A DNA stretch of 64,000 nucleotides from Gammaproteobacteria bacterium. Lineage in GTDB: Bacteria; Pseudomonadota; Gammaproteobacteria; JAJFKG01. Location of the stretch: the NCBI GenBank assembly GCA_021156325.1, contig JAJNDI010000001.1, positions 30,816 to 94,815 on the forward strand. Direction: 5' to 3'. Position numbers: made by a program. Shown in pieces: positions 27,001-30,000 of this stretch; position 1 is the stretch's first letter, and each line of letters begins with the position of its first letter.

Positions 27001-30000
27001 ACAATAAAAAATAAGCAGCCTTAAGAAAAAGGGTTGGGGATAATTTATTAAAGGGGACCTTTTCTTGACAACTCCAGCACTTAAGTCCTGTGATTTGGAC
27101 AAATTCAAGCCAACAGGCGTGTCAAGCCGTACCCGCTTTATCTTTGTGACTGGCGGCGTTGTCTCCTCTCTCGGTAAAGGGATTGCAACCGCTTCTCTGG
27201 GGGCTATCCTCGAAGCCCGCGGTTTAAAATTAAGCCTGATTAAATTAGATCCTTATATCAATGTTGACCCCGGTACCATGAGCCCCTTTCAACATGGGGA
27301 AGTCTATGTTACTGAAGATGGTGCAGAAACTGATCTAGACCTTGGCCATTATGAGCGCTTCACCCGGGCGGCTATCAGTAAAAGCAGCAACTTTACGACC
27401 GGGCGTATTTACGCCAATGTGATCCACAAAGAACGCCGCGGGGATTATTTGGGCGGCACTGTACAAGTAATTCCCCATATCACCGATGAAATCAAACACT
27501 GTATCTTTGAAGGTTCCACCGGCGCTGATATTGCTTTAGTGGAAATCGGCGGTACGGTAGGGGACATTGAATCCCTTCCATTTTTGGAAGCCATTCGTCA
27601 ATTGAGAATGGAATTGGGCGCTGCCCGTACATTGTTTATACATTTAACACTCGTGCCTCATTTACGTACTGCAGGGGAAACCAAAACCAAACCCACGCAG
27701 CATTCTGTTAAAGAATTGCAGCAAATTGGTATTCAGCCAGATATATTGATTTGCCGATCAGAAAATCCTCTGCCGCAGCCTGAACGGGCTAAAATCGCGT
27801 TGTTTACCAACGTGGCAGAACGGGCTGTGATTTCATTAGAAGACGTTGATTGTATTTATACGATCCCTGGCAAATTACAGGCCCAAGAGCTGGATTCCAT
27901 TGTCCTGGAAAAATTAGGGATGGATCTGGCGCCGGCCTCTTTATCGGATTGGCAGCAGGTAATTGAAGCTTATCGTCATCCTAAACAGGCAGTCACTATT
28001 TTAATGATAGGTAAATACACCAATTTAACGGATGCTTATAAATCATTATCAGAAGCATTAATTCATGCCGGTATTCATACGCAAACCAAAGTGCATATCG
28101 TTTATCTCGATGCGGAAGAAGTAGAGCGCCGCGGTATTACAGCAATTACCTCACAACCGCACGATGCTATTTTAGTTCCCGGCGGTTTTGGTGAGCGGGG
28201 TATTGAAGGCATGATCATGGCGGCGCAATATGCGCGTGAAAATAATGTGCCTTATCTGGGAATTTGTTTAGGCTTACAAATTGCAGTCATTGAATTTGCA
28301 CGCCACAAAGCCGGTATGAATAAGGCCAACAGCACTGAGTTTGATCAGGATACTCCTTATCCTGTAGTTGCTTTAGTCACTGAATGGGTCGATGCCAACA
28401 CAGGGCATGTACAAACCCGTAGTAAGAAATCGCACAAAGGCGGTTCGATGCGTTTAGGAGCACAGCCCTCAAATTTGGTTGCCGGTACTCTTGCCCGATC
28501 TGTTTATGATAGTGAAGCCATATGTGAACGTCACCGGCATCGTTATGAAGTTAATGATCAATTGCTGGGTGAGCTTCAGAAAGCGGGTCTTTGTGTCAGC
28601 GCTTATTCTGAAGAAGGCCACTTAGTGGAAATGATCGAAGTGCCTAATCACCCGTGGTATATCGGCTGTCAATTTCACCCGGAGTTTACATCTACTCCAC
28701 GCGACGGTCACTGTCTATTTAAGAGCTTTGTAAAAGCAGCGCTGGATTATGCTAATAGAGATAAAAAAAAAGCCGTAAATGAGACGCCTGATCTCATATC
28801 CTGAGTAAATAATGAATAGGGGTTAAGATAATGCAATTATGTGGTTATGAAGTCGGTTTAAACAAACCCTTTTTTTTAATTGCCGGGCCTTGTGTGATTG
28901 AAAATGAAGCCTTGGCCTTAGACACTGCCGGCCAATTAAAAGAAATAACCGATAAATTGGATATTCCTTTTATTTACAAATCTTCTTTTGATAAAGCCAA
29001 TCGTACATCAAATCACAGTTTTCGGGGTATAGGCCTTGAAAAAGGCTTGCAGATTTTAGAAAAAGTAAAGCAGCAGATCAAAGTGCCTGTTTTAACGGAT
29101 GTGCATGAAGACACACCGCTTGAAGAAGTTTCTACGGTAGTGGATGTATTACAAACACCTGCTTTCTTATGCCGTCAAACCAATTTTATTCATCGTGTCG
29201 CTAAACAAGGCTTGCCGGTCAATATTAAAAAAGGACAGTTTCTGGCACCCTGGGATATGCAGCATATCGTGGAAAAAGCACGCTCCGTGGGTAATGATCA
29301 GATCATGGTGTGTGAACGGGGTGCCTCTTTTGGTTATGGGAATTTAGTATCGGATATGCGATCACTTGCTATCATGCGAAATTGCGATTGTCCTGTGGTT
29401 TTTGATGCAACGCATTCTGTACAAATGCCAGGCGCAATATCGGGTAAAACCGGCGGACAGCGTGAATTTGTGCCTGTGTTGGCACGGGCTGCCATAGCGG
29501 TTGGGATCAGCGGAATTTTTATGGAAACGCATCCTAACCCGGATAAAGCGCCGAGCGATGGACCGAATATGTGGCCATTGGATCAAATAAAAGCTTTGTT
29601 AACCACCCTCAAAATGTTAGACGAAACTATAAAGAAACAGGGTTTTAAAAATACATTATAAACTTATTTTCTCCCCCTTTGAAAAAGGGGGAAGCCGCGT
29701 AGCCGCAGGGGGATTTACTCATAATGCTCAATATCAAAAAAATTATTGCCCGCGAAATTTTAGATTCTCGCGGCAATCCTACGGTTGAAGCGGATGTTAT
29801 TTTAACAGACGGTGCTTTAGGCCGTGCTTGTGCGCCTTCAGGTGCTTCTACCGGCAGCCGTGAAGCCTTGGAATTACGAGACAATGACAAGCAACGGTAT
29901 GGGGGCAAAGGGGTTCAACAAGCTGTTGCCAATATTCATACTATTATCGAGAAAAAAGCCTGTTCTTCGCACTATGAGACGCAGCGCGATTTTGATCACC

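Follow-up and report, generated by a model that had tools for sequence, protein, structure and literature searches.

Three short repeats in a gammaproteobacterial contig as probable solo ends of a triplex-motif family whose full form brackets a DUF559 gene

Introduction

Short GC-rich palindromes occupy three intergenic sites in the 64-kb stretch of gammaproteobacterial DNA analyzed here (the window), and they raise the question of whether they belong to the neighboring genes, as terminators or regulatory signals, or are copies of a dispersed element that has settled next to them. DUF559 is among the most widespread domains of unknown function. BoxC, PIT, and other triplex-motif repeats, known since the 1990s, abound in groups ranging from enterobacteria to cyanobacteria and have been linked to genome instability; to our knowledge, they have no known origin, means of spread, or associated gene. 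BoxC/PIT triplex elements of E. coli and other bacteria were reportedly described by Hoyne et al. in 2000.

Results

One module in three copies

The repeats noticed in a sequence-only reading of the window, the third of them inverted, are present as described and resolve into three copies of one module (Table 1). The module opens with an 8-bp hairpin, C5T3-GAA-A3G5, continues with a second, smaller hairpin, which covaries and has GTA in its loop, and ends in G5-6ATTT. A G/C stem with a tttgaaaaa loop had been proposed; the pairing of C5T3 with A3G5 instead gives five G-C and three A-T pairs closed by a GAA triloop, and the supposed cg-tagc tail is the second hairpin, which reads GCCGC-GTA-GCCGC in copy 1; in copy 2, compensatory changes in the stem make it CTTGC-GTA-GCAAG. 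The copies had also been called near-identical. Copies 1 and 2 do share the three-part architecture; copy 3 has clearly diverged further: its hairpin has 7 bp, its middle part is 25 nt long, and it folds no better than shuffled sequence (z = -0.5). In the window copies, loop 1 is 3 nt long, and loop 2 is 16, 18, and 25 nt long. The names kdsA, eno, ftsB, and dam given to the adjacent genes agree with the domains that Pfam assigns on a metagenome contig of identical sequence.

Table 1. Module copies in the window, their parts, and adjacent genes
Feature	Position	Strand	Description
Copy 1, whole module	29673..29716	+	
Copy 1, blocks 1 and 2	29673..29691	+	Hairpin CCCCCTTT-GAA-AAAGGGGG; predicted 8-9 bp with DNA and RNA parameters alike
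Copy 1, second hairpin	29694..29706	+	Inside loop 2; GCCGC-GTA-GCCGC with one C-C mismatch
Copy 1, block 3	29708..29716	+	GGGGGATTT, mirror of AAAGGGGG
eno start	29724		ATG 7 nt beyond block 3 of copy 1; preceded at 11 nt by GGGGGA of copy 1
ftsB ORF end	31315		Stop codon included; copy 2 begins 8 nt later
Copy 2, whole module	31323..31369	+	
Copy 2, hairpin	31323..31341	+	CCCCCTTT-GAA-AAAGGGGG; DNA fold z = -4.2
Copy 2, second hairpin	31342..31359	+	CG-G-CTTGC-GTA-GCAAG-A-CG; stem-loop proper 31345-31357
Copy 2, block 3	31360..31369	+	GGGGGGATTT; its last T is shared with the stop codon of the convergent ORF for a Dam-like methyltransferase
Dam-like methyltransferase ORF	31369..32262	-	
ORF facing copy 3	61334..62818	-	Block 3 of copy 3 points at its start across a gap of 78 nt
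Copy 3, whole module	62896..62946	-	
Copy 3, block 3	62896..62904	-	GGGGGATTT on the minus strand (AAATCCCCC as given for copy 3)
Copy 3, middle part (loop 2)	62905..62929	-	25 nt; weak hairpin only predicted (z = -0.5)
Copy 3, hairpin	62930..62946	-	Degenerate; CCCCTTT-TC-AAAGGGG on the minus strand; 7 bp

Both recurrent motifs are over-represented in the window. CCCCTTTGAAAAAGGGG, with up to 3 mismatches allowed, has 8 matches against 0.28 expected, and GGGGGATTT has 5 against 0.68; no shuffle equalled either count. The surplus matches fall within coding sequence without the remainder of the module, and looser regular expressions run over the 64 kb yielded no further copies. Rfam 15, searched at gathering and E-value thresholds, matched nothing over the elements, whether in the window or in 20 related loci.

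Folding and mirror geometry

Family-wide, the region from the hairpin to the G run folds better than shuffled sequence (p = 1e-13). The fold of the module is more significant under DNA than under RNA parameters; on the module strand, RNA fold z-scores reach only -0.9 to -1.2. The second hairpin varies strongly in length, and its loop was scored by apex-anchored counting: 45/97 loops are GNA triloops (GCA in 20, GAA in 16, and GTA in 9), and the closing pair is C-G in 79/97.

The third block, G5ATT, mirrors A3G5 with T in place of A. Family variants with asymmetric cores, parsed strictly, gave 19 mirror arrangements and 0 direct ones, with 16 unclassified; the test is informative at the family level only, the window copies having homopolymer G cores. 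Watson-Crick pairing cannot account for this 19:0 bias. Mirror symmetry of this kind defines the purine-motif triplex repeats (PMC4666352), and it accounts for the conserved tail GGGGGATTT as the mirrored block 3 of such a triplex. Like published triplex motifs, the window copies have a pyrimidine block, a complementary purine block (8 bp in copies 1 and 2, 7 bp in copy 3), and a third block that mirrors the purine block. Their loop 2 exceeds the short loops of those motifs (1 to 6 nt in ITxF; 3 to 6 and 3 nt in TMECO). In copies 1 and 2 the long loop 2 folds into a compact hairpin, and short-loop relatives (TA, CA, or TTA) are common beside DUF559 genes. For TMECO, the triplex has been demonstrated in vitro on single strands only and was not detected in vivo (PMC4666352).

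Distribution and mobility of the family

The composite pattern CCCCYTTKWMAAAGGGG-N10-30-GGGGGATTT, whose chance expectation is below 0.1 in 596 Gb, occurs at no fewer than 118 genome loci in Gamma-, Beta-, and Deltaproteobacteria, Cyanobacteria, Bacteroidota, Nitrospirales, Patescibacteria, and others, as well as in 23 viral contigs. Copies stand in both orientations and form inverted pairs (inverted repeats of 33 to 50 nt) and BIME-like tandem composites. Others lie inside ORFs: module copies occur in frame within HrpA, MurG, ValRS, RadA, and other proteins, with Pfam domains flanking both sides. A census of intergenic position and orientation was used only to spot such deep in-ORF cases, which were later confirmed by Pfam; it is otherwise unreliable, because naive ORF calling over-calls in GC-rich loci. 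The HrpA site is filled in Glaesserella australis and empty in Actinobacillus porcitonsillarum. In the nearest relative of the window genome, kdsA abuts eno with no spacer, and the element is absent across 14 kb. The analysis shows the kdsA-eno and ftsB-dam spacers to be insertions rather than native regulatory DNA, and the earlier suggestion of a dispersed, REP-like miniature element is borne out for one that is evidently mobile.

Two signatures of mobility suggested beforehand did not appear. Inspection of 29 complete cassettes and of the HrpA insertion revealed no direct duplication, so the target-site duplication expected of a MITE is lacking there. Nor did a REP-associated tyrosine transposase emerge: an all-against-all comparison of 2097 ORFs from the 118 listed loci yielded no recurrent transposase-like cluster, and only housekeeping paralogue families recurred. 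The many viral contigs of 4 to 7.5 kb had suggested origins of single-stranded DNA phages; the one inspected proved to be a fragment of a Mu-like transposable phage, and the idea was abandoned. Solo modules were also considered as ribosome-binding or promoter cassettes (compare GGGGGATTT ahead of DUF559 and, apparently, eno). ORF starts are not enriched downstream of modules (23/159, versus 20% at random control positions), and this role was rejected.

An orthologous module copy in a 5' region is kept in three Xanthomonadales genera, its second hairpin carrying compensatory changes. This conservation hints that some copies have been selected for a host function, beyond a purely selfish model.

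Association with DUF559 genes

Among the matches listed, all three DUF559 genes in pattern-selected loci (3/3) are bracketed by inverted modules. In this full form, the two modules surround a PF04480 gene with their mirrored blocks facing inward, and the whole cassette measures 407 to 520 bp. In a reciprocal test on 80 metagenomic DUF559 loci, a module was present within 150 nt upstream in 55/73 (75%), at a median distance of ∼10 nt, a figure limited to this subfamily because the 80 loci are the closest relatives of the element-associated queries. A module was found downstream in 55/73 and on both sides in 41/66; for comparison, control windows gave 0.15 to 0.8%. The association is specific, reciprocal, and geometrically exact, and it is the new point of this analysis.

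The cassette protein (115 to 130 aa; DUF559, PF04480) is a predicted Vsr-like PD-(D/E)xK endonuclease that matches PDB 3hrl (E = 2e-28) and 3r3p, the catalytic domain of the homing endonuclease I-Bth0305I (E = 6e-4). Its ORF is intact in 70/80 loci, with D52, E63, D65, and H69 invariant. The gene is present in only ∼1% of modules. The majority of genomic copies consist of gene-less pairs, junction units, or solo ends, and gene-less pairs with spacers of 13 to 36 nt exist. The distance from one inward-facing block to the other is most often gene-sized, with a tail at 13 to 200 nt that fits internal deletion derivatives. Variant right ends of the form AAATCTCCCC-TAA-CCCCTCTTT..AAAGAGGGG are BoxC-like, as are the flanks of more distant DUF559 genes.

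The window itself contains no DUF559 homologue in its 64 kb, and no partner module lies near any copy. Its copies are therefore solo ends and not a DUF559-bracketed cassette, and a cognate nuclease is putative for the source organism.

BoxC-like repeats and ycjD in E. coli

BoxC/TMECO copies also follow ycjD, the DUF559 gene of E. coli, which is single-copy at one fixed locus. Among 60 evenly sampled E. coli genomes, the 37 with ycjD have 11 to 26 BoxC-like places and the 23 without it have 1 to 12, a correlation that is confounded by phylogeny.

Discussion

Solo ends of a triplex-motif family

Taken as a whole, these results are probably best explained if the window repeats are solo terminal modules of a GC-rich palindromic family of the BoxC/PIT/intrastrand-triplex kind, whose full element brackets a DUF559 gene and whose nuclease drives or maintains its spread. 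Block 1 (C5-6T3) and block 2 (A3G5-6) are Watson-Crick partners on either side of a GNA triloop; block 3 (G5-6ATT(T)), the mirror of block 2, comes next, set off by a short loop or by a GC-GNA-GC mini-hairpin inserted there. When the DNA is single-stranded, block 3 could occupy the hairpin groove and form G·G:C, A·A:T, and T·A:T triplets. The complete element has two such modules as inverted terminal repeats, mirrored blocks inward, framing the gene for the 115- to 130-aa protein. We infer that a DUF559 nuclease encoded elsewhere in the genome recognizes the folded or palindromic ends and mobilizes the modules, driving or maintaining their spread much as RAYT does for REP/REPIN. The window copies would be non-autonomous relics with only incidental local effects: they would add a spacer, place a G-rich stretch 7 nt ahead of the eno start, and leave stable hairpins 3' of kdsA and ftsB. 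We know of no way in which a lone PD-(D/E)xK nuclease could insert DNA at non-homologous sites.

A broader version is more tentative, and we put it at somewhat under even odds. DUF559 proteins (YcjD-like, Vsr-fold) might be the cognate enzymes of bacterial GC-rich triplex-motif repeats in general, BoxC/TMECO of E. coli included, and so form a second system of the RAYT-REPIN type. A nuclease gene of 115 to 130 aa would be framed by structured inverted repeats, and each DUF559 clade would be matched to a repeat sequence family of its own. Gene-less pairs and solo ends would spread, into coding sequences as well, and would decay once the nuclease was gone.

The DUF559 link may explain the origin of the long-puzzling BoxC-type repeats, and it opens two questions to testing: whether the folded triplex/hairpin ends are bound or cut by the nuclease, and whether the repeats owe their formation or upkeep to it. 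If the interpretation is true, the cassette, at about 410 to 520 bp, may be the smallest gene-bearing selfish cassette, and the family would account for recurrent 'PPFxKGG...GGF' inserts and spurious N-terminal extensions in annotated proteins.

Alternative explanations

The DUF559 link could be real and its causality reversed, which we regard as unlikely though the strongest of the alternatives. The repeats would then spread by other means, through a host process acting on structured DNA or an as yet unrecognized transposase, and DUF559 would be a free-standing parasite resembling a homing endonuclease that sits between the mirrored blocks (G5-6ATTT/AAATC5-6, a near-perfect palindrome) and is copied by break repair into gene-less pairs. 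The very compact cassettes, with the gene exactly between the halves of a 20-bp palindrome, are consistent with such a parasite, as are the kinship with the 3r3p catalytic domain, the gene-less pairs with 13- to 36-nt spacers as potential targets, the lack of target-site duplications at cassette ends, and the presence of the gene in only ∼1% of modules. However, an uninterrupted G5ATTT-AAATC5 site was not found, the smallest spacer being 13 nt, and insertions at unrelated sites such as ORFs are left unexplained. The single-copy ycjD at its fixed E. coli locus is also unlike an active homing gene, and repeats are fewer where ycjD is absent. Action at the RNA level is less probable still. Strong stem-loops, the position of copies 1 and 2 after stop codons, the GGGGGA ahead of the eno ATG, and the Xanthomonadales copy with its compensatory changes would suit terminators or 3' stabilizers after kdsA and ftsB, or cis-regulation or translation control before eno and the minus-strand ORF facing copy 3. 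The sequence-only reading had the repeats act as terminators at two sites, yet all three copies lack a T tail, the first hairpin being followed by the second and by G5ATTT, and a terminator scan called none of them; they are therefore not terminators. The modest RNA fold z-scores, the lack of an Rfam match, the occurrence of copies in both orientations and inside ORFs, and the absence of any enrichment of ORF starts after modules all argue against RNA function. Moreover, RNA does not form purine-motif triplexes, and the related TMECO elements of E. coli are reported to have no promoter or terminator activity (PMC4666352).

Strict REP elements, moved as single-stranded hairpins by a RAYT (Y1 HUH) transposase, are very improbable. 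Dispersed, mostly extragenic GC-rich hairpins in inverted pairs and BIME-like tandem composites would fit, as would loops of single-stranded-DNA type and the GTAG in the second hairpin of copies 1 and 2. Yet this GTAG is inconstant, reflecting one of the several GNA loops rather than an end tag; the ORF comparison over 118 loci yielded no recurrent transposase-like cluster; the gene bracketed by modules is DUF559; REPs have nothing corresponding to the mirrored third block; and a literature search that included REP papers found no match to the literal module sequences. Convergent GC-rich hairpins with no common origin can be practically dismissed. There are just three copies in 64 kb and copy 3 is degenerate, but shuffles never reached the observed counts, the composite pattern vastly exceeds its expectation, and copies 1 and 2 share a three-part architecture; chance resemblance of the three sites is refuted by the shuffle counts and the family-wide expectation.

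Comparison with known systems

The closest likeness of the module is to the BoxC/PIT/TMECO repeats (for TMECO, Holder et al. 2015, PMC4666352). Both have a pyrimidine block, a complementary purine block over a short loop, and a third block mirroring the second (class II, C-G-G), and both are GC-rich, dispersed through many phyla, mostly intergenic, in either orientation, and often in inverted pairs. The block sequences differ (C5T3/A3G5/G5ATT in the module; CCCTCNCCC/GGGNGAGGG/GGGNGAGGG in BoxC/TMECO), and loop 2, which is 1 to 6 nt in published triplex motifs, is 16 to 25 nt in the window and has, in copies 1 and 2, a GNA mini-hairpin of its own. Some module copies also lie within ORFs; TMECO, by contrast, is described as confined to intergenic DNA (PMC4666352). 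The BoxC/PIT/TMECO literature gives no associated gene and no link to mobile elements; the module is tightly associated with DUF559.

REP/REPIN-RAYT systems resemble the module in their hundreds of short GC-rich palindromes, inverted doublets, and mosaic clusters, in the single small nuclease-type gene between inverted copies, and in having fewer repeats where the gene is absent. The REP enzyme is a Y1 HUH transposase, whereas the candidate here is a PD-(D/E)xK Vsr-like nuclease; the module has a mirrored third block and no constant GTAG/CGTC tag; and its core sequence is conserved across phyla, in contrast to lineage-specific REPs.

Small palindromic repeats tolerated in frame in protein genes are known from the Rickettsia palindromic elements (RPE; Ogata et al. 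2000, via PMC3184786) and from the betaproteobacterial repeat element (BRE), which has a C5..G5 hairpin, a second hairpin, and a G5 plus T run and forms variable tandem arrays (Hot et al. 2011, PMC3110155). These have other sequences and are confined to one lineage each, and neither a nuclease gene nor triplex geometry is described for BRE or, as far as the account in PMC3184786 goes, for RPE. Finally, the cassette protein matches 3hrl and the catalytic domain of I-Bth0305I (3r3p), and its gene is a small, selfish-looking nuclease gene within its own repeat. I-Bth0305I is the product of a group I intron of a phage and carries a DNA-binding domain in addition, whereas the cassette protein is a bare domain of 115 to 130 aa whose gene is flanked by structured inverted repeats.

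Anatomy of the repeat and its mirrored third block

The three intergenic repeat sites picked out by the sequence-only reading are present with the content that it described, and each holds a family D module; in copies 1 and 2, a hairpin is followed by a second mini-hairpin with a GTA loop and by a third block, G5-6ATTT. The hairpin proposed by that reading stands, but its stem is not exclusively G/C and its loop is not 9 nt long: a C5T3/A3G5 stem carries a GAA triloop. The 19-nt hairpin CCCCCTTTGAAAAAGGGGG is identical between copies 1 and 2, in both of which G5-6ATTT is the last block, after the second hairpin. 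The hairpin word was matched 8 times in the window against 0.28 expected and the GGGGGATTT word 5 times against 0.68 expected, and no shuffle scored as high for either; the remaining matches are coincidences in coding sequence, and no fourth copy was found in the window with relaxed patterns. Because the window is only 42.6% G+C, the element islands are conspicuous.

Positions of the repeat copies and neighboring features in the window
Feature	Position	Strand	Description	Basis
Copy 1	29673-29716	+	second hairpin GCCGC-GTA-GCCGC	
Copy 2	31323-31369	+	second hairpin CTTGC-GTA-GCAAG	
Copy 3	62896-62946	-	same block order; 7-bp hairpin; 25-nt middle part	
ORF	28831-29661		CTP synthase neighbor, then DAHP_synth_1 (kdsA)	Pfam on metagenome contig
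ORF	29724-31028		enolase	Pfam on metagenome contig
ORF	31037-31315		DivIC/FtsB	Pfam on metagenome contig
ORF	31369-32262	-	convergent MethyltransfD12 (Dam-like)	Pfam on metagenome contig
GC-rich island	23479-23608		arms CAAGCGGGAGAGGG / CCCTCTCCCGCTTG	
GC-rich island	52977-53039		arms CAAGCGGGAGAGGG / CCCTCTCCCGCTTG; at start of ORF 52973-54721	
tRNA gene	34694-34767			
tRNA gene	39118-39191			
tRNA gene	40087-40160			

Across 113 distinct modules, shuffled versions of the region from the hairpin to the terminal G run fold less well than the region itself (Wilcoxon P = 1e-13). Of 97 loops of the second hairpin, 45 are GCA, GAA, or GTA (20, 16, and 9, respectively); C-G closes 79/97, with G-C following in 58, and at deeper positions CG, GC, TA, and AT pairs interchange freely. 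The second hairpin is therefore a sequence-conserved GC-GNA-GC apex upon a covarying stem. GNA triloops with a C-G closing pair are classic, very stable DNA mini-hairpins, and the fold z scores of copies 1 and 2 were -2.5 and -4.2 with DNA parameters versus -0.9 and -1.2 with RNA parameters.

The layout C5T3 / A3G5 / G5ATT is exactly the block order of BoxC, PIT, and TMECO, the known GC-rich repeats defined by a C-rich block followed by its G-rich complement and then by another G-rich block that is the mirror of the first, with a loop at each junction (PMC4666352). In a strict comparison of natural variants with asymmetric cores (GAGGGG, GGAGGG, GGGAGG, and GGGAG), the third block was the mirror image in 19 distinct variants and a direct repeat in 0, which excludes Watson-Crick pairing as the source of the pattern. 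Since the third block mirrors the purine block, the conserved "gggggattt" tail is accounted for. Family D thus adds a new sequence variant to a known kind of element, the intrastrand-triplex-motif repeats.

Distribution, arrangement, and insertion into genes

The composite pattern CCCCYTTKWMAAAGGGG-N10-30-GGGGGATTT, which takes in all three window copies, matched more than 118 loci, compared to fewer than 0.1 expected in 596 Gb. The hosts among the matches listed include Methylococcaceae, Xanthomonadales, Betaproteobacteria, Deltaproteobacteria, Cyanobacteria, Bacteroidota, Nitrospirales, Patescibacteria, a Coxiellaceae MAG, and a Glaesserella isolate, and 23 IMG/VR contigs carry the pattern, among them a Mu-like transposable phage. 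Some modules are solo, and others form inverted pairs 13 to 200 nt apart (e.g., in a Betaproteobacteria MAG, Xanthomonadales, and Glaesserella), "junction" units (AAATC6-N6-hairpin-hairpin2-G6ATTT), or BIME-like tandem composites (locus L005); in Methylococcaceae, they are embedded within a longer element. In a Lysobacter MAG (L021), inverted copies at 2878-2926 (+) and 6051-6099 (-), 3.1 kb apart, have identical 30-nt flanks on both sides, which makes them either part of a more extensive inverted duplication or an artefact of assembly.

Modules also lie in frame, deep within long ORFs. By Pfam, they were located between the two domains of MurG (L102), within the ATPase domain of RadA (L115), within the anticodon-binding domain of ValRS (L066), within the domain of a Pyr_redox_2 protein (L014), and between the methylase and TRD domains of an MmeI-type enzyme (L092). 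In HrpA of Glaesserella australis, the insert is a composite of approximately 100 nt (module, 12 nt, inverted module), G. parasuis carries an element of equal architecture and other sequence at this site, and Actinobacillus porcitonsillarum, among other species, has no insert there; no target-site duplication was visible at the HrpA insertion of Pasteurellaceae. In-frame GC-rich palindromic inserts recur in one HrpA loop near residue 478 (L052, L145, and L146), a hot spot at which they belong to several sequence families across Pasteurellaceae species; other species lack them. The cross-phylum family and the insertions into genes support the earlier suggestion of a REP-like or miniature mobile element.

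Insertion history in the window

Flanking genes were identified by Pfam on a JGI metagenome contig whose enolase is identical to that of the window, as is the enolase of an NCBI MAG labeled Gammaproteobacteria. In the closest relative (74% enolase identity; 2.4-Mb contig), kdsA and eno overlap, stop on start, and the element is absent from the 14 kb examined. In the window, the spacer between kdsA and eno is 62 nt long, consists essentially of the element, and is therefore an insertion. Within 29708-29726, the sole purine-rich stretch before the eno ATG (29724) is the GGGGGA of copy 1, and the inserted copy may now supply the ribosome-binding site of enolase, although the family in general does not tend toward such a placement. 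At 31360-31371, the stop codon of the Dam-like ORF shares the last T of copy 2, an overlap that matches the stop-to-AAATC5 geometry at the right end of the cassettes described below; no partner module lies upstream of the methylase. Two of the three tRNA genes are arranged as a 77-nt inverted pair, between which lies a 5.3-kb segment containing several ORFs with no Pfam match on record; this segment may be an island.

A DUF559 gene bracketed by modules

Clustering of all ORFs in the fetched loci yielded no transposase, leaving the proposed tyrosine (REP-associated) transposase unsupported. One small ORF family stood out, DUF559 (PF04480; E value of about 1e-33), a Vsr-like endonuclease domain, and in 3/3 loci having it the gene was bracketed by inverted modules with their G5ATTT ends toward the gene. 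The entire unit is 528 bp in L119, where an unrelated fluoride riboswitch is found at 4697-4761 (-) (Rfam RF01734; 53.7 bits).

In the reciprocal test, an alignment of the three proteins retrieved 80 metagenomic DUF559 loci. A module lay ≤150 nt upstream of the gene in 55/73 (median, about 10 nt), and an inverted module lay downstream in 37/73 in canonical form, or 55/73 when the variant AAATCTCCCC...CCCCTCTTT..AAAGAGGGG was counted too. Both sides were flanked in 41/66, compared to module presence in 0.15 to 0.8% of control windows. Complete cassettes are 407 to 520 bp, with inverted ends of 33 to 50 nt. The ORF, intact in 70/80 loci, encodes 115 to 131 amino acids with about 53% pairwise identity; its structural matches are PDB 3hrl and, at a weak level, the catalytic domain of I-Bth0305I, a homing endonuclease. 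Because D52, E63, D65, H69, D78, and R81 are invariant, the protein is under selection as an enzyme.

Tandem multiplication of modules is frequent upstream of DUF559 genes (flanks of L228, L167, L163, and L065), as in the three tandem hairpin-TT-G6ATTT-gcctact units of L228 (38-187), and L147 and L149 are one G6ATTT unit apart; VNTR-like behavior similar to this was reported for the BRE of Bordetella (PMC3110155). Only about 1% of modules in pattern-selected loci carry the gene. The spacings of inward-facing ends peak at gene size and trail off into short spacers, the distribution that internal deletion derivatives would be expected to give. No DUF559 homolog was found within the 64-kb window, and the window copies are therefore solo ends. 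The accessible literature contains no mention of a DUF559-repeat association, and the link appears to be new and testable.

Possible mechanism and alternatives

The element would act as DNA: transiently single-stranded DNA would fold into the hairpin and mini-hairpin, the third block occupying the groove. The ends would be recognized, and nicked or cut, by a DUF559 dimer, and copying would be completed by host replication and repair. Gene-less pairs and solo ends could then result from deletion and one-ended events. The terminator role suggested previously was not borne out, as 0/3 copies were called intrinsic terminators and 0/3 have a T tail. Individual copies may have been co-opted: three Xanthomonadales genera retain one, with compensatory changes, in an orthologous 5′ region. 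Family-wide there was no enrichment of modules before ORF starts.

A serious alternative is that DUF559 merely homes into repeats already present. Escherichia coli, whose DUF559 gene is ycjD, lends the link between nuclease and repeats separate support. GC-rich palindromes follow ycjD, and one of them is dispersed, occupying a median of 16 places per genome. The gene occurs in 3,378/5,426 complete E. coli genomes, at one place each, and is absent from 38%. In 60 genomes taken at even intervals down the ranking, repeats were counted with ycjD plus the adjacent TMECO as the query. Places numbered 11 to 26 (median, 17) in the 37 ycjD-positive genomes and 1 to 12 (median, 4) in the 23 ycjD-negative ones, a difference uncorrected for phylogeny (Mann-Whitney P = 1.6e-9). 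O157:H7-like strains lack ycjD yet have 11 to 12 copies; Nissle, with 2 places, is the only named member of a low group with 1 to 3. Even so, counts of this kind are what would be expected from a nuclease that sustains the repeats.

Comparison with known triplex-motif repeats

In E. coli K-12 (NC_000913.3, 1351194-1351760; L227), the end of ycjD lies in a BoxC-like remnant, followed by a duplicated copy of the ycjD 3′ end and TMECO no. 9. More distant DUF559 genes on viral contigs are flanked by other palindromes, BoxC-like and of the CCCTCTCCCGC/GCGGGAGAGGG type, which suggests a correspondence between nuclease clades and repeat families. The CCCTCTCCCGC..GCGGGAGAGGG palindrome of the two additional GC-rich islands in the window also flanks a distant DUF559 gene (viral contig L230), and these islands may belong to another repeat family of this genome, BoxC-like and of the triplex type.

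In vitro, single-stranded BoxC, PIT, and TMECO DNA folds into an intrastrand triplex of the purine-motif type; RNA does not form triplexes of this type; the E. coli motifs lack promoter or terminator activity, show no theme among flanking genes, and mark unstable loci, and no association with mobile elements was found (PMC4666352). The family D element differs from these repeats in its block sequence, in a second loop that is long but structured, in the occurrence of copies inside ORFs, and, relative to the repeats as published, in its association with DUF559.
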